Numbered from the whole stretch's first letter, positions 7,924-59,363 are shown. The stretch: 63,074 nt of DNA, filler included, from Candidatus Nezhaarchaeota archaeon WYZ-LMO8 (GCA_004347965.1; 4 parts of 4 records of this genome joined end to end with filler, not necessarily neighbours in it), one strand, 5' to 3'. Numbers and translations: made by a program. Notes: generated by a model not told the origin, from the letters alone.

Positions 7924-10269
7924 TTAAGCCTTGAGACGGCAGTAGCCAACGATTACTTGTCCTACTGAGAGGCCTCCATCACCTGGAGGTAGGGCTCTAT
8001 GTCTTAGTAGCTTTAAGTTATACTTTGAAGCTACGTTCTCAATCGTTTCAAGCATTATTTCGTTAACAGCAGCACCCCCTGAGATCCCTATGATTTTTAT
8101 TCCCTCTTCCTGCGCTTTTGAACAAGCTATCTCAGCAAGCCCCTTAGCTATAGCTACTTGTGCTATGCGAGCTATCAAGCTTGGCGGAGTATTCTTCATA
8201 AGTGACACTAAGTGTGACGTTATGTGAGAAGCATCAACTATACTTGTCCTACCTCTATCGATTATGGGGATCTCGATCTCAATGTTGGCAGATGGATTGC
8301 TCATACGGGCAAGGGCTTCAAGCTTCATTGCTGGCTCACCCTCATAAGACCTGTAAGTGCATACTCCCAGCATGGCTGATATAGAATCTAGGATCCGCCC
8401 CGTACTCGATGAATGTATAACGTTAAAGCCTGAACTTAGCTGCTTTATAACCACGGGCACTTCACGAGGTCCATATTTAAAGGCTTTTGAAAATTTCTCA
8501 AGTAGAAGGCTTTCGAGCTCCTTGAGGCTCATGACTTGACTGAGCAAACCAGCTAAAGCCCTAATTGGATAGTATGCGCATATATCTCCTCCAGGCAAGG
8601 GATAGGGCTTTATGTGCCCCACTCTCTCATATCCCTCACACGTAGCCAATAGAACTTCCCCACCCCACGCAGTACCATCATCACCTAGCCCCACTCCATC
8701 CATTGTAATGTACACTGCTTCTTCATCAAGTCCAAGTCCTCCCTCAGCTGCAAGTGATGCAGCATGTGCATGGTGATGTTGAACCCTTATAAGGGGTATG
8801 CCCAATTCGCTGCTAAGTTCTTCAGCATATCGAGTTGAAGGGAAAGTACGATTCAAATCGCATGCGATAGCGTCTATCTTCCCTATTTTGAGGGCCTTCT
8901 TTAAGAAGTTGTAAGCTTGCTTTAGGAAGTTCAATGAATCTGGATTGTCAAGATCTCCTATGTGCTGGCTTACGTAGCAATTATCGTTTTTCAGGAGGGA
9001 GATGGTGACGTTAAAGTCGCCTCCAAATGCCACTATACACTTACCTTTATTGCGAAGTTTCGGAATCATTATCGGCAGGGGCGCATAACCTCTAGATCGA
9101 CGTAAGAAGGTTGGAACTCCATGAGATACCCTTATTACTGAGTCATCGCATCTATTCACTATCTCTCTGTTATGAGTTAAGTAGTAGTCAACTATCATTG
9201 AGAGTTTCTTTAAAGCATCTTCTGTTGACGTCACCATGGGCTCTCCAGGGTAGTTAGCACTCGTCATTATGATTGCTGGCTCATTGATGTGCATTAATAA
9301 GAGCAAATGTATGCCTGAGTAAGGTAACATGACCCCTACGCTGTCGAGGCCTGGAGAGACCAAAGGGGATATGGGGTTATTTGGCTTAGCTCTCAGTACA
9401 ACTATGGGGCGTTCTTTGGACAGAAGCAGGTCTCTCTCGATTTGATTGAGATAGGCAAAGCTTTCTACGTGATCAACTGATGGCGACATAACTGCGAACG
9501 GCTGTTGAGGTCTTCTACGTCTCTCTCTTAGTTTTAAGACTACATCATCGTCAGTGGCTAGGCATGCTATGTGAAAACCTCCTATACCCTTCACTGCGAC
9601 TATAAAGCCCTCTTTAATCAGTTTAGCTGCTTCCTTAATGGGATCTTCACAGGAAATTTTTAATCCATCGCGGTCTAGTAGCTCATTTTTAGGACCACAT
9701 AATCTGCAGCAAATCCCCTCAGCATGATATCTCCTGTTAGCTGGATCTTCATAATCCCTCTGACAAAATTTACATAGAGGAAATTTGGCCATGCTCGTGT
9801 GTTCGCGATCGTAAGGAATGTCAAGAATCATCGTGAACCTAGGTCCGCAGACAGCACAGCAAGTAAAGGGATAGTTTGACCATCGAGGGTCTTTACCCAT
9901 AATGTCGTTGATGCAATCATGACATATTGCTATGTCTGGTGGGATTGAGGAGCCACATTGCCTTACTCTTGAATCACTTGGCAGTATCTGAAATGCCCCG
10001 AATTCACCAGTGTATTCAAGCCATTCCACTGAAATGTTGTCGACGCGTGCAGGAGCAGGTTTCTCCAGCTTAAGCTTCTCGATAAATTGTTCAATGGAAC
10101 TTCTCTTACCCTCAACCACCACCTCTACTCCTGCATCTCCAAGATTAACCACGTAACCCTTGAGATCTAGTGATACAGCTAAGCGATAAACGAATGGTCT
10201 AAACCCCACTCCTTGAACTACTCCGCTAACATGGATGATGGCTTTCACTAGACTGCTCATTGCTTCCAA
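7924..10269 (-). CDS. hypF: Hydrogenase maturation carbamoyltransferase HypF
   Basis: Acylphosphatase [11 protein letters not shown], two CxxC zinc fingers, [22 protein letters not shown]. Confidence 0.97.
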
Positions 10270-11438: not shown

Positions 11439-11516
11439 AGCGGGGTGGGGAAGTCAGGTTATCCCGCGGGGCTCATAACCCCGAGATCGGTGGTTCAAAT
11501 CCACCCCCCGCTACCA
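11439..11516 (+). tRNA. Initiator tRNA-Met(CAT)
   Basis: A1:T72 pair, consecutive G-C pairs in the anticodon stem CGGGG-CTCATAA-CCCCG, TTCAAAT T-loop, encoded CCA. Confidence 0.95.
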
Positions 11517-13193: not shown

Positions 13194-14366
13194 TTACCTA
13201 CAGTCTTTCACGAGGACCGCGTAGAAGAAGCCTGGAGTGTCATGAATATGTGGATGAAATCTAACAACTTTATCTGCATACTTCGAATACGTGACTATAC
13301 CCATATCTCCTATTTGGCGTGGAACTTCGAGTAGTTGCATTCCGAGCTTTTCAATAGCATAATTAATATTGTTCTCGCATTCCTCTATACTGACGGTACA
13401 TACAGAGTATAGCATTCTACCGCCTTTCTTAAGCAAGTTAAAACCAGCTCTTATGAACTGCCTTTGATATTCACTTAAATTCCTAATAGTTTTCTCCGTC
13501 AGCTCATCGTAAAGCTTAGGCCTTATACCTAGCGCAGAGCATGGAGGATCGACCATTACGGCATCGACCTTGCCCTTGAGATCCTTCAGCTCCAGGTCAG
13601 CATACCTTGAATCTAGACATAAGATCTTAGCGTTCCTCACTCCAAGCCTTTGAACATTCTCATTTAATGTTTCCACCTTATTTGGTGAACGATCTATCCC
13701 TATAATCAATCCCCTGTTGTTCATAAGTTGGCTGGCATACGTTAACTTACCACCAGGAGATGCGGTTAAATCAATTATGAGCTCGTTGCTCCTCGGATTA
13801 AGAGCTTTCACGGCTAAAATGGATGGCAGTGATTGAGGAAATATTTCCCCCTTTAAGTATAGATCAAGGCTTCTTATAGATGGCAACTTATAAATGGAAA
13901 CTAGGGTTTCAGCAACCAACCCTTTTCTTAAGAACTTCAAATCTTTTGAGTCAATTACAGCCCTCGCAATTGCTACAGACCTTCCTTTAGGGTCCGTAAC
14001 GGTTACGTTGTCACCTTTCTGAACGCCTTCCATGTTAATTACTCCCGGCGCGTAGACGTTAGCTCCCATCATGACCGATTCGGCTGTCAGCTTGTCAACT
14101 ACGATCTTTTTACTAAGCTCAGGCACGTCGAACGGTCCTAGGACCTTAATTAACACGACATCGAGCTCAGCAATTGCTTTAACTTCAAATTCTAGACATC
14201 TAAAGTACTTCTCAACTTTATCGATTGAACTCTTTAAAGTATTCACGCGAACTGTGTACCATGAGCCAGGCGACGAGAGTGCCTCTATCACGCGATCAAC
14301 GGCTTCTCCGTAGACCATGCTTAAAACGCACATAGCGGCTCTTGAAGGTTGGTAACGAGGTATCAC
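13194..14366 (-). CDS. RsmB/NOP2 family RNA m5C methyltransferase with PUA domain
   Basis: PUA-like [38 protein letters not shown]. Confidence 0.92.
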
Positions 14367-21608: not shown

Positions 21609-22631
21609 TCAGTTAACTATGTTCGACCATAACTTACTTATCTCGTCACGAACATATCTTGATATCTCTTCAATCTCGCCGTTAACTCTATGAAGTAGTA
21701 CTCTCGGTACGCCACGATCCACGACTTCACCTATTATTGAGAAGCTTACACCGATATTCTTTAATGAGTTTAAGGCTACATCAATTAAGTCTGGCTTTAT
21801 GGTTGCTATTAGAGCTCCACTACTTATTAGCTTGAGGGGATCGAGATCTAAAGATTCACATATGATCTTTGTTGAGGCTCTTATTGGTACCTTGTCTTCA
21901 TAAATCGTCATTACGCAGCCAGATGCCATGGCCACTTCTAGAAGACCGTTGAGCAGCCCCCCTTCCGTCGGGTCATGCATCGACGTTGGAGTCCTAGTCT
22001 TCGCTAACGTTAATGCTTCTCTCACCACGCTTACATCGTTAAAGCATCGTACTGCTTCCTCTATTATGCTCTGTGAAACTCCCAGTTCTAGGAGCTTTAC
22101 TCTAAAGTCGCTTGCTATTATCGCTGTTCCTTCTAACCCTGTAGCTTTAGTCATGAGTACTAGGTCTCCTGGTCTTGCTCCTCTCGTCAAGATCAGTTCG
22201 TCTTTCAATCCTATTCCCAAAGCAGTCATTACCACTATGGGCTTCTCGATTCCCGGAGATATTTCTGTGTGCCCACCAATTATCATGCCACCTACTTCCC
22301 TAAGTGCAGCATCCATCTGCTTTGTTATCGAGTCGAGAGCTTCGACGTCCCTTGAAGGAAGCAGTATCGTTGATAAGAACCAGCTCGGCTTAACTCCTCT
22401 AACGGCTACGTCATTACTTGCCACATGAACACTTAGCCAACCTATTCTCTCTACAGCCTCTGTTATAGGGTCTACATGTATGGCTAGGATCCTGTTGTTT
22501 CCTAAATCTATTATAGCGGCATCCTCACCTATGCTAGGACCGACAAGAACCCTATCATCGGTTACTCCAAGTCTCGAGAAGACAAGGCTCTCAAGCACGG
22601 CAGGAGGTAATTTTCCTAGGTTAGCCTTCAT
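21609..22631 (-). CDS. AIR synthase-related / HypE-like protein
   Basis: GKLPP, GEDAA, NDVAVRG, GGHTE, MHDPTEGG. Confidence 0.88.
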   Translation of the reverse strand: MKANLGKLPPAVLESLVFSRLGVTDDRVLVGPSIGEDAAIIDLGNNRILAIHVDPITEAVERIGWLSVHVASNDVAVRGVKPSWFLSTILLPSRDVEALDSITKQMDAALREVGGMIIGGHTEISPGIEKPIVVMTALGIGLKDELILTRGARPGDLVLMTKATGLEGTAIIASDFRVKLLELGVSQSIIEEAVRCFNDVSVVREALTLAKTRTPTSMHDPTEGGLLNGLLEVAMASGCVMTIYEDKVPIRASTKIICESLDLDPLKLISSGALIATIKPDLIDVALNSLKNIGVSFSIIGEVVDRGVPRVLLHRVNGEIEEISRYVRDEISKLWSNIVN

Positions 22632-22680
22632 TCTACAAACACCCAGTTTTACAAGTTGTTAAAGAAGTTAACTGAGAAAA

Positions 22681-22733
22681 ATTCAGCGAGATCGGTGCTC
22701 ATCATCTCTATCAGATCATTAGCTCATCACGCC
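22681..22733 (-). ncRNA. Box C/D guide sRNA
   Basis: GTGATGA-GCTAATGAT-CTGA-TAGAG-ATGATGA-GCACCGATCTCG-CTGA; all four boxes match consensus. Confidence 0.88.
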
Positions 22734-22932
22734 ATTTGCTCTTCCATCCTTCCCTCCTATTTTTAAGAGACTCACTAATAAAGGCTGATAGCAGCATCTT
22801 CAATGCCATGCTTTAGGGTCAAGGCCTTAAGCTTTAAGTGACTTCACATTCCTTAGCTTGACGTTGTTGATCAAACTTCAACCTTTAACTGCTATAAGTC
22901 TGTGAGAGTTTAATTCCTAGTTGGGGATTTGT

Positions 22933-55604: not shown

Positions 55605-58600
55605 TTAATGGCTCAGCGCTCCTCCTCTACGCGTTAACATTATTACAAGCGTTATGGTGATTGCTATTAGAACTCCAATTATTATGTTGATAAGTAATTC
55701 CGTTGAGATGGCTAGTCCCTCAACTGTCCATTTAGCTTTTAGTGTTGTGGGAAATTGCACCTTGAATACGTATGTAGGCGATGCGCTCACTAAAGTTCCG
55801 TTCTCCTCCCACCCCTTGAACTTGTAGGTCTTGGAGTCCTCTTCGAACTTTATTGGGGAGATTGTTATTCTCGCCTCATCACCCTCATCGTACCAGCCGA
55901 TACCCTCTACAACCCCATAATCGGAAGTAGCGGAGATGTAGTACTGTCTACCCCAGTTTAGCGTTACTTCATTCTTTGAAGTGTACTCATAGCTTTTCAA
56001 GATCAAGCGGGTTCTATTACCTAGATCGATTAGATAACCTATTGGTACCTCAAGACCCCTTCCCATCTCGATGAGCTTCACTCCACTGAAGATGTCTAGT
56101 GGATCGCGTATCCATAGTAGCTGCATGGATGGTAGGGTTTTAGTGGAATAGTAGACTTGGGTGGGCGTAGCTTTACCAGAGCTTAGACGAACCACGTAGT
56201 CTCCGCAGTAGCTTGCATAGACCCCCTTAACTCTCTCATGCGTGATGTAGCCGTGGCTATAAGCTGTGGGAATAGGGATCAACTCTCCGTTAATGTTGAC
56301 GAGCAGCTTTAAGTTGGCGTCAATCCTCTCAACCACGGTCTTCGGCTTCACTCCAGATGGTCCAGCTAATACTAACTCCAAGTCGCTTAAGGGGTATGTC
56401 GTTGGATCAACCTTAAAGCAAGCAGTGTTAGGGTTAACGTGGAGAAGAACAGCATCGTAGAGCTCTACGGGCTCATTAGCAATTGACTTGCCAAACTCCA
56501 ATCTTACTGTGCCATCCTCCATCTTTACTGATAAGTGAAGAAGGATCGTTAAAGGGTAGCTATAATCCATCCACCTTTCAACAATGTAGAAGTAGTAGTC
56601 GCCAGCCCTCATCTCTTTAGCTATGCTACCATTACCCTTAACCAGCTGCCTGTTCAACATCGAGATGGGATACGTGGTGGCATTCCACAAATTGTTCAAT
56701 AACCTTAGCCGCTTGGTCTCAGTATCTAAGATAACTATGTTTTGAACCCAGTAGACCTGCCAACCGCTTTTGGCCTTTACGTGTAAGAAGGCGTTTAGCT
56801 GAAGTGTGAGACAATGCTTCATCTCGTCATCGTCGAAGGGTCTGGTCGCGTATAACTCACGTATCTCAGCTAGACCCCAAGTCTCTACATACTCGTAGCT
56901 GTATCCAATCCTCCCCTCGGGCAATGATGTAACGCCGTAGTCGACTATCCCTATAGGCAGGTAGACTCTCGCTTCCTCGAATGATGGTAGGGAGCTCTCG
57001 TAAGCCTTAATGAAGTAGCTTACCTCTGCTTGCTCTGTTGAGCGTAAGACAAGGAAGTACGTTCCTGGATCCAGTTGAACGCTAACGTTAATCTCCTTGC
57101 CAGTCCACGTGAGCTTGGAGCCTATAGACCTTGTTCTAGTAAACTCTTTGAGCTCACTCTCAGTCATGAGAGTGAGCTGTATGGGTGCAGAGGAGCTCAG
57201 CGTAGCTTCCAAGAAGGCGTAGGCAGTCTCATTGCTTACCGTGAATCCTGGAGAGCACAGGTATTGAGGTGGAATTATGGTTGTGCTTCCGTTCATGTAC
57301 AGGAGGGTCTTGTTAATGTATGCTAAGTTGAACTTATCGTAGGGCACTGGAAGTTTTAGAAGCATCTTCTTGGGCTCAGATATTAAGGGGATCTTCTTGA
57401 TTAGTAAACCTCCATCTCCTCCAATCGTTATCGTACCATTCTCAACTGATACTGAGAAGGCAGCGGATCCCATACAGTAACTCCACATTAAGTCACCGGT
57501 TTCATTAAATAGAAGAACTAGCCCAAGCCAGTCCCCAGCAACGAGGCAGTTACCCATCCAGCTGAGGCAGTACACGTATTGTGGGTAGGGCTTCGTGTAG
57601 TATTCCTTCGGCTTAACGGACTCGGGTGGTGTGTATGACCACTCTAACTCGCCATCTTCGTCAAGCACGTAAATTCCCATAGCTCCACCGAAAGCCACGA
57701 AGTCCTTTCCAGGTGCTATCACAGTCCCATAGATCTCCCTAGACCACAAGACATCTCCTTGCTTATCGAGAGCATATGTCTTGTCGGTAACAACTATGAG
57801 TGCGTCTCTCCACCATGAAGCCGATACGCGCCAAGGTATCGTGGCATTTCTCTCAGTGCTCTTAAAGAACCACTTTAAGCCTCCATGCTCGTCGAACACG
57901 AAGACGCCCTCGCCAGCAACACCAACGGCTAAGAGGGGGCCAGACCACGAGAGAGAGATGACCCAGTCAGGGACTCTGTAGCCCCAAAGTAGGGTTCCGT
58001 CCTTAGTGAACACACAAAGCCCGTTGCTGAGACCCACAGCCAAGAGGCCACTACTACTCCACGAGAGGGAGCGGACCTTGCCTAAACTAAAGCTCCACTT
58101 TAAACTACCCTCCTCATCGAAGACGTATAGGTCGCTATAGCCCCCGACCGCTAGGAGGTCTTCATACCAAGCGAGGTGAGCAACCCATCCAGTCTCACTA
58201 CTCCACTTCACGTTCCCCTCTAAGTCTAGCACGAAAACATTGGAGTCCCAGCCGCCAACAGCCACTAGGCCTCGATGCAAAGCGACTGCCTCCACGTGGA
58301 AGCCCAACTTCCTTTTCCATAGCAGAGTACCACTCCCATCCAGTACGTGGACGTAGCCGTCGCTGCTAGCGATTGCTATCTTGTCACTATAGAACTTAAT
58401 GGCCCAAACGTAGCCGCAGGTCCAATAGCTCCATAGCATATTTCCCCGAGAATCGAGTAGCGTGAAGTTCCCGCTATCCAATCCAACTCCTAAGAGGAAG
58501 TCTCCGTATGAAGATATGGCTTGTACACAGTATTCGAGCTCGTACTTCCATGCAACTTCACCTCTTTCATCGAGGACCACAACGCCGCCTCTACCTCCTA

Positions 58601-59363
58601 CAGCTAGCAGATCGCCCAGCCACATTAGAGAAGATGGTTCTACTTCCTTCACGTACTTCGACCACTTCAAGCTTCCATAATGATCAAAGACGTACACCAC
58701 TCCATCAGAAGTTTCGAGAATCGCTAAGTCCCCCTTACTGCTCCACGAAATTTTGTCTAAGAAGCCGTGGAGACCCCACAATACGCTGCCTTCCTTGTCG
58801 AATACGTAGACGCCCCACGTACCCTCTGGACCTCCTAAACACATAATCGCTGCAAGATGATAGCCGCACCAGGACACAGCTAAGGTGTCGCCGCCCTTAC
58901 TCCATAGTAGCTTCCCGCTCTTGTCGAAGACCATTAGGCTATCTGCTCCAACAGCAAGCATATCTCCGCTCCACGCTACTGAGTTTGCTTGATGCTCAGA
59001 CTCCATGCTCCAGAGCAAAGCGCCGTCATGATTAAAGACATAGAGGACACCCGGAGGTCCAAGGCTTACAACTGCTAATTCACCACTATCACTCCACGAT
59101 ACGTCCCATGTGCTAGTATAGTTTAACCTTCGCTCCCACCTTAAGGAGCCATGATGGTCATATACGAGTAGGTGACCTGTACTCGTCCCAACAGCCAACC
59201 CGTAATCACTCCAGTCTAGGACCCTCGGAACTCCGAAAGACCAGAAGGACTTCTCAGATCCATCCGAGTAAGACTCTTGAGAAGTGATGGCATAGCTTGA
59301 GCCATGAAGGAACGTAATGAGATATAAGGCTAAAATGGCAAGCATGGTCTTCTTAAAAACCAC
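55605..59363 (-). CDS. Secreted, membrane-anchored beta-propeller / thermopsin-like protein
   Basis: Signal peptide; about 15 PQQ/WD-like repeats (VFD..G.L.WS); thermopsin-like PIGIVDYG, LQLNA, YWVQN, DLELVLAGP; GWYDEG repeat; C-terminal TM. Confidence 0.8.
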   Translation of the reverse strand: MVFKKTMLAILALYLITFLHGSSYAITSQESYSDGSEKSFWSFGVPRVLDWSDYGLAVGTSTGHLLVYDHHGSLRWERRLNYTSTWDVSWSDSGELAVVSLGPPGVLYVFNHDGALLWSMESEHQANSVAWSGDMLAVGADSLMVFDKSGKLLWSKGGDTLAVSWCGYHLAAIMCLGGPEGTWGVYVFDKEGSVLWGLHGFLDKISWSSKGDLAILETSDGVVYVFDHYGSLKWSKYVKEVEPSSLMWLGDLLAVGGRGGVVVLDERGEVAWKYELEYCVQAISSYGDFLLGVGLDSGNFTLLDSRGNMLWSYWTCGYVWAIKFYSDKIAIASSDGYVHVLDGSGTLLWKRKLGFHVEAVALHRGLVAVGGWDSNVFVLDLEGNVKWSSETGWVAHLAWYEDLLAVGGYSDLYVFDEEGSLKWSFSLGKVRSLSWSSSGLLAVGLSNGLCVFTKDGTLLWGYRVPDWVISLSWSGPLLAVGVAGEGVFVFDEHGGLKWFFKSTERNATIPWRVSASWWRDALIVVTDKTYALDKQGDVLWSREIYGTVIAPGKDFVAFGGAMGIYVLDEDGELEWSYTPPESVKPKEYYTKPYPQYVYCLSWMGNCLVAGDWLGLVLLFNETGDLMWSYCMGSAAFSVSVENGTITIGGDGGLLIKKIPLISEPKKMLLKLPVPYDKFNLAYINKTLLYMNGSTTIIPPQYLCSPGFTVSNETAYAFLEATLSSSAPIQLTLMTESELKEFTRTRSIGSKLTWTGKEINVSVQLDPGTYFLVLRSTEQAEVSYFIKAYESSLPSFEEARVYLPIGIVDYGVTSLPEGRIGYSYEYVETWGLAEIRELYATRPFDDDEMKHCLTLQLNAFLHVKAKSGWQVYWVQNIVILDTETKRLRLLNNLWNATTYPISMLNRQLVKGNGSIAKEMRAGDYYFYIVERWMDYSYPLTILLHLSVKMEDGTVRLEFGKSIANEPVELYDAVLLHVNPNTACFKVDPTTYPLSDLELVLAGPSGVKPKTVVERIDANLKLLVNINGELIPIPTAYSHGYITHERVKGVYASYCGDYVVRLSSGKATPTQVYYSTKTLPSMQLLWIRDPLDIFSGVKLIEMGRGLEVPIGYLIDLGNRTRLILKSYEYTSKNEVTLNWGRQYYISATSDYGVVEGIGWYDEGDEARITISPIKFEEDSKTYKFKGWEENGTLVSASPTYVFKVQFPTTLKAKWTVEGLAISTELLINIIIGVLIAITITLVIMLTRRGGALSH

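Follow-up and report, generated by a model that had tools for sequence, protein, structure and literature searches.

A box C/D sRNA from a hot-spring lineage of Thermoproteota, with a D guide predicted to direct 2'-O-methylation of initiator tRNA nucleotide 46

The DNA analysed here, referred to as the window, is the whole stretch of 63,074 nucleotides, filler included; sequencing runs that contain window DNA are labelled as hot-spring metagenomes. On its minus strand, just upstream of an AIR-synthase-related (AIRS-family) gene, lies a short element with the four boxes of a box C/D sRNA. In the direction of the minus strand, the features of the locus are as follows.

22758..22766, minus strand: TTAAAAATA, a TATA-like box and putative promoter element 27 nt upstream of the C box
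22681..22733, minus strand: box C/D sRNA gene, whose boxes span 22683-22730 and whose ends are predicted
22724..22730, minus strand: C box GTGATGA, found by pattern match; its TGA.G core is invariant in the homologue alignment
22715..22723, minus strand: D' guide GCTAATGAT, 9 nt, orphan, not conserved among homologues
22711..22714, minus strand: D' box CTGA, invariant in the five aligned copies and read as CTGA in 8/8 homologues parsed
Between the D' box and the C' box, minus strand: loop TAGAG
22699..22705, minus strand: C' box ATGATGA, with TGATGA invariant in 8/8 homologues
22687..22698, minus strand: D guide GCACCGATCTCG, 12 nt, of which positions 2-11, counted from box D, are CACCGATCTC
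22683..22686, minus strand: D box CTGA, invariant among homologues
22677..22681, minus strand: T5 run, 1 base past box D, possibly an archaeal termination signal
21609..22631, minus strand: AIR-synthase-related gene, whose ATG follows box D by 51 nt; it has no role in the mechanism proposed below

The AIR-synthase-related protein scores below the NCBIfam cut-offs for HypE, ThiL and SelD, and a search with it returned distant Thermoproteota relatives only. Elsewhere in the window, 7924-10269 (minus strand) encodes a HypF carbamoyltransferase and 55605-59363 (minus strand) a 1,252-aa thermopsin-domain protein with beta-propeller repeats.

The C and D boxes of the element have the 5' RUGAUGA and 3' CUGA sequences of archaeal box C/D sRNAs, and the internal D' (CUGA) and C' (UGAUGA) boxes are separated by a short loop. 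An earlier reading made from the sequence alone had called consensus C, D', C' and D boxes at 22681..22733; the call stands, with the element on the minus strand. One match to a fairly loose four-box pattern was obtained in the 63-kb window, and none in 300 first-order Markov random windows. The spacer between C' and D has the canonical length of 12 nt, as it does in all eight homologues described below. The C-to-D' spacer, for which about 12 nt is usual, is 9 nt long in the window and in two homologues (G197 and G162). In the others it is longer: 10 nt (G190), 11 nt (G344), 12 nt (G372 and G264) and 14 nt (G429). A short C-to-D' spacer can reportedly lower the activity of the particle, as found in work on M. 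jannaschii sR8. Since the Pyrobaculum sRNA sequence table, the portion of the PMC6009581 supplement used here, includes spacers down to 10 nt, the 9-nt spacer stands at the edge of the known range.

At gathering level, Rfam reports four tRNAs in the window and no C/D family. When thresholds are removed, several archaeal C/D families align over the full length of the sRNA region, the highest sub-threshold scores (bits, relative to the gathering value) being 18.5/45 for snoPyro_CD, 17.8/37 for sR7 and 16.0/39 for sR28. The sRNA has the form of the C/D class and is a member of no curated Rfam C/D family. An A/T-rich box at a similar distance upstream can be read from the alignment in all six syntenic homologues, the window included; the T5 run after box D occurs in the window and in G197 and is absent from the other four. 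We regard the element as almost certainly a real box C/D sRNA.

The D guide is complementary to part of an initiator tRNA gene that lies 11 kb from the sRNA gene in the window; the sRNA is not intron-encoded.

11439..11516, plus strand: initiator tRNA-Met(CAT) gene (tRNA-iMet) with encoded CCA, identified by ARAGORN and Rfam
11483..11492, plus strand: predicted target duplex, tRNA-iMet G43-G52, paired with D guide positions 2-11
11486, plus strand: A46, the 2'-O-methylation site predicted by the N+5 rule and counted from the tRNA sequence

The tRNA has a CAU anticodon, an A1:U72 pair and three consecutive G:C pairs (GGG/CCC) closing the anticodon stem, and the latter two features are what we take to be the marks of an archaeal initiator tRNA. 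The elongator tRNA-Met of relatives differs from it (CTCATAACCGGGTGGTCG...). About 1.7 kb from the tRNA-iMet gene, 13194-14366 (minus strand) encodes a PUA-domain RNA methyltransferase of the RsmB/F type.

Compared with 11482-11493, the complement of the D guide matches at 11 of 12 positions, and the single mismatch is the 12th pair, a G:G at the 5'-most guide base. Over 11482-11492 (tRNA positions 42-52) the match is 11/11, as the sequence-only reading had noted. The same reading had placed the modification at A46, and counting along the tRNA gives the same result: under the N+5 rule, in the form given in the part of PMC6009581 used here, the fifth guide base upstream of box D, a U, stands opposite window position 11486. 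A46 is the third of the five variable-loop bases (A44 G45 A46 U47 C48). Guide positions 2-11 form 10/10 pairs with G43-G52, with a Watson-Crick U5:A46 pair at N+5. The target duplex comprises the last anticodon-stem base, the variable loop and the 5' strand of the T stem; because one anticodon-stem base and four T-stem bases are included, the tRNA must be unfolded for the pairing to occur. If up to two mismatches are allowed, the 12-mer has five matches in the window for 1.97 expected, which is near expectation, and besides the sRNA gene itself the tRNA is the only near-perfect one.

Homologues were sought by BLAST, by patterns and with a sequence-only covariance model built from five copies. 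Eight distinct copies were obtained: that of the window (identical in L017 and L018) and those of G197, G162, G372, G190, G264, G344 and G429. The two identical copies came from a 22-nt exact scan of metagenome contigs, which also returned L019, a copy from another organism of higher G+C content, namely G429. The relationship of genomes of the close clade to the window was gauged by thermosome identity among 400 sampled genomes of the phylum, which is 94% for G197, 91% for G312, G264 and G372, 89% for G162 and G234, and 85-86% for G190, G378 and G366. The distribution of the sRNA is patchy (6/400 sampled genomes of the phylum). Outside the window's class the D half was found in G344, which is among the 400, and in G429, whose copy emerged from a search of 120 genomes of G344's class. 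In that class we also observed a second conserved C/D D half, TGATGA-N-T[GA]CCGAGTTC-N-CTGA, which is present in 8/120 genomes (G344, G440, G441, G445, G448, G449, G450 and G458; loci L139 and L141-L147).

In six of the eight homologues (window, G197, G162, G372, G190 and G264) the sRNA is closely followed by the AIRS-family gene. This gene was found in 5/9 close-clade genomes, and all five have the sRNA; no sRNA was found upstream of it in L001-L006 or in five members of the order that are less closely related. The G344 copy is upstream of a GNAT acetyltransferase gene, and the G429 copy adjoins neither a GNAT nor an AIRS-family gene. All four boxes are kept in the eight copies, and positions 2-11 of the D guide are CACCGATCTC in five of them. 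The three remaining guides differ as follows: in G197 A10 is replaced by G, with pairing to U51 retained; in G264 C2 is replaced by U, with pairing to G43 retained, and U5 by C; in G344 U5 is replaced by C. The edges of the guide vary, with G, A or T at position 1 and G or A at position 12. The D' guides, 9 to 14 nt in length, cannot be aligned with one another, and the loops and flanks have diverged, with a mean column identity of 54% in the syntenic regions. Besides the boxes, conservation of the sRNA is confined to a 10-nt guide block that starts one base from box D. It is this 10-nt block that forms the guide-target helix in the solved structures of archaeal C/D RNPs.

In six genomes about 50 nt separate the element from the AIRS-family gene that follows it. 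This location, together with a D' half that is short and has no target, would also suit a promoter or leader element, or a decaying and non-functional C/D-like sequence whose complementarity to the tRNA is a matter of chance or a relic. Such an origin is hard to square with the retention of boxes and guide positions 2-11 while flanks, loop and D' guide diverge. The guide half is also found in two other genomic contexts, and since the block is kept in three contexts in all, its conservation is not accounted for by constraint on a local promoter or leader. Moreover, the distance from box D to the ATG ranges from about 30 to 51 nt across the syntenic homologues, and a perfect site in stable RNAs is expected by chance in only 1.5% of cases (see below). 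We consider a decayed or leader element highly improbable. The variable distance to the ATG leaves two ways in which a functional sRNA may be produced, namely from its own transcript or by cutting from the leader of the AIRS-family mRNA.

Among the relatives, tRNA-iMet is identical over positions 27-53 in G197, G162, G372, G190 and G234. The target block in G344 differs from that of the window at one base (GAGGTCGGTG, with G46 for A46). As the G344 guide has C5, the N+5 pair is changed on both sides, from U5:A46 to C5:G46, and guide positions 2-11 make 10/10 pairs with the tRNA-iMet of the same genome. The sequence-only reading had pointed to covariation of guide and tRNA among relatives as a means of judging the target, and G344 supplies it, as one compensatory event. 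Both partners are known in six genomes (window, G197, G162, G372, G190 and G344); positions 2-11 are fully paired in 6/6, and the N+5 pair is Watson-Crick in every one.

Pattern, BLAST and tRNA family model searches did not find tRNA-iMet in the G264, G312 and G429 assemblies. A pattern match in G429 proved to be coding DNA, and two BLAST matches were tRNA-Arg and tRNA-Gln. Given its C5 guide, G264 is predicted to have G46 in its tRNA-iMet; A46 would mean a mismatch at N+5. One of the three assemblies in question still has 41 tRNAs, and the tRNA-iMet gene of G372 is split over two contig ends (L043 at the end of G372:C30 and L044 at the end of G372:C2). Assemblies seem prone to break at the tRNA-iMet locus, perhaps because a repeat or an integration site is present there.

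It might be argued that the D guide does bind tRNA-iMet and that the pairing itself is what is useful, as a chaperone for folding of the pre-tRNA or as a means of holding back the initiator, rather than methyl transfer. Precedent exists in Pyrobaculum, where conserved guide-target pairs with a mismatch at N+5 are read as having a pairing function; in the same source, a Watson-Crick pair at N+5 is essential for methylation (PMC6009581, in the part used here). G264, with C at N+5, would join these pairs were its tRNA to have A46, and the non-canonical 9-nt D' spacer counts in the same direction. What argues for methylation is that the N+5 pair is Watson-Crick wherever both partners are in hand and that the guide changed along with nucleotide 46 in G344. 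A U.G wobble would have kept the helix, so the co-change fits selection on methylation and not on mere binding. The methyltransferase is also available in the relatives, since fibrillarin (PF01269) scores above cut-off in all five related sRNA-bearing genomes that were searched. On balance, a role limited to pairing appears quite unlikely.

Competing targets for the D guide were sought in G197, the closest near-complete genome. Its assembly is about 1.5 Mb, and the largest contig (1.32 Mb; 1,322,957 nt) was scanned; the 44 ARAGORN tRNAs together with the 16S and 23S rRNAs amount to 8,658 nt. In this set the only 10/10 site for the window D guide is tRNA-iMet. The runners-up, tRNA-Ile(GAU) and tRNA-Arg(UCG), reach 9/10, each with a G.U pair at N+5 and one mismatch. 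Ribosomal RNA was considered as a target and rejected, the best sites in G197, G162 and G190 being 9/10 with G.U pairs or an N+5 mismatch. In the rRNA of relatives, for instance, the D guide forms seven Watson-Crick and two G.U pairs near LSU position 1463, and eight Watson-Crick pairs and one G.U pair at LSU 335, where N+5 is mismatched. The sequence-only reading had named a better, conserved site in rRNA or in another tRNA as something that would overturn its assignment, and none emerged from the G197 tRNAs or from the rRNAs of G197, G162 and G190. As no other tRNA or rRNA segment gives full pairing in the relatives scanned, targeting appears specific to the initiator tRNA.

While examining the rRNA genes we noticed that the 23S rRNA gene of G197 (L115, G197:C1:689379-692751) is 3,373 nt long, compared with 3,147 nt in G190 and 3,145 nt in G162 (loci compared: L114 and L116). 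The extra ~226 nt may be an rRNA intron or an insertion.

The strength of the single match was assessed with shuffled guides. A perfect 10-nt site was obtained in the stable RNAs of G197 in 2,930 out of 200,000 trials (1.5%), and in its tRNAs alone in 1,050 out of 200,000. The D-guide match taken alone is only mildly significant, and the weight of the case lies in conservation and covariation. The 10-mer GAGATCGGYG occurs at 23 places in five related genomes, about as frequently as a reversed control, and none of the 17 places situated away from the sRNA and tRNA-iMet genes overlaps an Rfam RNA.

These scans also bear on the proposal that the D guide serves mainly some other RNA (an rRNA of the organism itself, a tRNA that is split or has an intron, or an mRNA), so that the match to the initiator tRNA would be secondary. 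There is some room for this, since the scans covered relatives and, in G197, the largest contig (1.32 of ~1.5 Mb), and since the 10-mer is found in protein-coding DNA as well, at about the chance rate. It is countered by the ranking of the sites, with 9/10 for the best rRNA sites in three relatives against 10/10 for the tRNA, by the 17 extra 10-mer places that coincide with no Rfam RNA, and by the compensatory change, which follows the tRNA. We hold another principal target to be very unlikely and retain tRNA-iMet as the target of the D guide.

For the D' guide of the window, the sequence-only reading had found no target, and the present searches agree with it: apart from the sRNA gene itself, the window has no exact complement of the guide, and there is no good site in the tRNAs or the 16S and 23S rRNAs of G197. 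Orphan second guides are common, being present in about 80% of the tRNA-targeting sRNAs of Pyrobaculum (PMC6009581, in the part used here). The window D' guide is an orphan of this sort and probably serves only to build the second half-particle.

The D' guide of G429 (L019) behaves differently from that of the window. It makes 10 contiguous pairs (nine Watson-Crick and one G.U) with the anticodon arm of tRNA-iMet, which puts N+5 on G29, the first of the three initiator G:C pairs. The shuffled-guide probability of this match is 0.0024, and none of the 43 other G197 tRNAs is as good; tRNA-Cys comes near, with 10 pairs of which eight are Watson-Crick. The comparison was run on the tRNAs of G197, not on those of G429. 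We also considered whether all D' guides could be worn second guides for tRNA-iMet, and rejected the idea, the other seven being at chance (p = 0.07 to 0.84). The G190 D' guide ATTAGCCCTC (L071 1502-1551) pairs at 9/9 positions, eight Watson-Crick and one G.U, with nucleotides 148-156 of the 16S rRNA of the same genome (L117), and judging from this complementarity the second guide may have gained an rRNA target in the G190 lineage.

The G429 match raises the speculative and, in our estimation, unlikely prospect of an sRNA family dedicated to the initiator tRNA, with both guides directed at tRNA-iMet (G29 and 46) in some lineages. If this were true, positions of initiator identity and of the tertiary core would be singled out for ribose methylation, which could tune initiator recognition or the lifetime of the initiator at high temperature, and the window lineage would have lost the second (G29) site.

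Metatranscriptome contigs of X14, the one RNA library with part of the region, cover 22405-22631 only; assembled contigs are no means of detecting small RNAs, which libraries of this type usually lose. One X14 contig, which differs at four of 227 nt, has its end precisely on the A of the AIRS-family ATG; this is a weak hint of a leaderless AIRS-family mRNA, contigs being unable to prove a transcript start.

We propose the following mechanism. Like other members of its family, the sRNA would assemble with L7Ae, Nop5 and fibrillarin. Positions 2-11 of the D guide would then pair over 10 bp with G43-G52 of unfolded or nascent tRNA-iMet, and this pairing would place fibrillarin on the ribose of nucleotide 46 (A46 here, G46 in a relative). 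The predicted outcome is Nm46 in the variable loop of tRNA-iMet. A likely benefit in a hot-spring organism would be rigidity and resistance to hydrolysis in the region of the variable-loop/D-stem triple. Expression of the sRNA, assembly of the particle, methyl transfer and its benefit are features that we infer by analogy with known C/D systems.

Taken together, the uniqueness of the target, the conservation of the guide in eight homologues and the covariation support the assignment of the D guide to position 46 of tRNA-iMet that had been made from the sequence alone. The D guide has very likely been selected to target tRNA-iMet, with nucleotide 46 as the predicted methylation site; we put the probability of this reading at roughly 0.75. 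It leads to the specific prediction that tRNA-iMet carries Am46 in this hot-spring lineage of Thermoproteota and Gm46 in a related genome. It adds a case in which guide and tRNA target have changed together, and would extend the catalogue of tRNA-body sites attributed to guide RNPs and provide a ready assignment of one site to one guide for the mapping of modifications in archaeal tRNAs. A further suggestion, that the sRNA might be linked to non-canonical or unusual start codons, found no support. The view of how C/D sRNAs work is unchanged, and no new principle is involved.

The G197 contig offers a local measure of how common such guides are. Three of its six strict C/D candidates have tRNA-matching D guides, and the matches are to three tRNA-Leu isoacceptors, to tRNA-Leu(CAA) near the anticodon, and to tRNA-iMet. 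The five further candidates in G197:C1 are located at 100420-100467, 732924-732978, 783201-783249, 893310-893359 and 1148569-1148617, and the strict pattern has no match in a random genome of the length of the G197 contig. Their perfect 9-nt sites are in 16S rRNA (one), 23S rRNA (two), the three tRNA-Leu isoacceptors (one) and tRNA-Leu(CAA) near the anticodon (one).

Ribose methylation at structural positions of the tRNA body has more than one known origin. In Pyrobaculum, a C/D guide for Cm56 takes the place of a protein enzyme and acts on many tRNAs, and in yeast Trm44 is a protein-only enzyme that forms Um44 in the variable region. The predicted Nm46 resembles both in being a ribose methylation at a structural tRNA-body position, and differs from both in the position modified.

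The closest parallels come from the Pyrobaculum sRNAs, 32 of whose 110 families are predicted to act on 23 tRNA positions, including G51 in the T stem (PMC6009581, in the part used here). Considered with the G197 candidates, these families make an sRNA of the present kind ordinary for the phylum. The sequence-only reading implied a more unusual modification than is warranted, because C/D-guided methylation of the tRNA body, the variable-loop nucleotide G45 included, had already been predicted in Pyrobaculum (PMC6009581). What does appear to be new is the site. The terms 'tRNA A46', 'tRNA G46' and 'iMet' have no occurrence in the PMC6009581 supplement as searched by terms, and a look-up of the tRNA modification survey PMC7668247 by the term 'Am46' likewise gave no entry. 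Term look-ups of the open literature, including the searchable text of PMC6313347 and PMC7994747, turned up neither a C/D guide directed at an initiator tRNA nor Nm46. The target site, position 46 of the initiator tRNA, has apparently not yet been described, and the kind of guide is already known.

Guides directed at single, specific tRNAs are also known from work on the anticodon. Pyrococcus sRNAs are predicted for position 34 of tRNA-Leu, tRNA-Met and tRNA-Trp, and the guide in the tRNA-Trp intron for Cm34 and Um39 is proven in vitro (PMC7994747, in the part used here). The window sRNA shares with these anticodon-directed guides the methylation of ribose by a C/D RNP, here predicted, in single specific tRNAs. 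Those guides act on the anticodon loop and concern decoding, whereas the window sRNA is aimed at the body of the initiator tRNA and is unlinked to the tRNA gene. In being aimed at the tRNA body, its nearest counterpart is Pyrobaculum sR62, whose D guide is predicted to act on the variable-loop nucleotide G45 of tRNA-Arg, tRNA-Thr and tRNA-Lys (PMC6009581, supplementary table S4, Lui et al. 2018). As far as the entries used here go, sR62 and the window sRNA are both Thermoproteota C/D sRNAs with a D guide to a variable-loop nucleotide, an orphan D' guide and no rRNA target. The likeness observed here is one of features rather than sequence, and the window sRNA is distinguished from sR62 by its choice of nucleotide 46 and of the initiator tRNA only.
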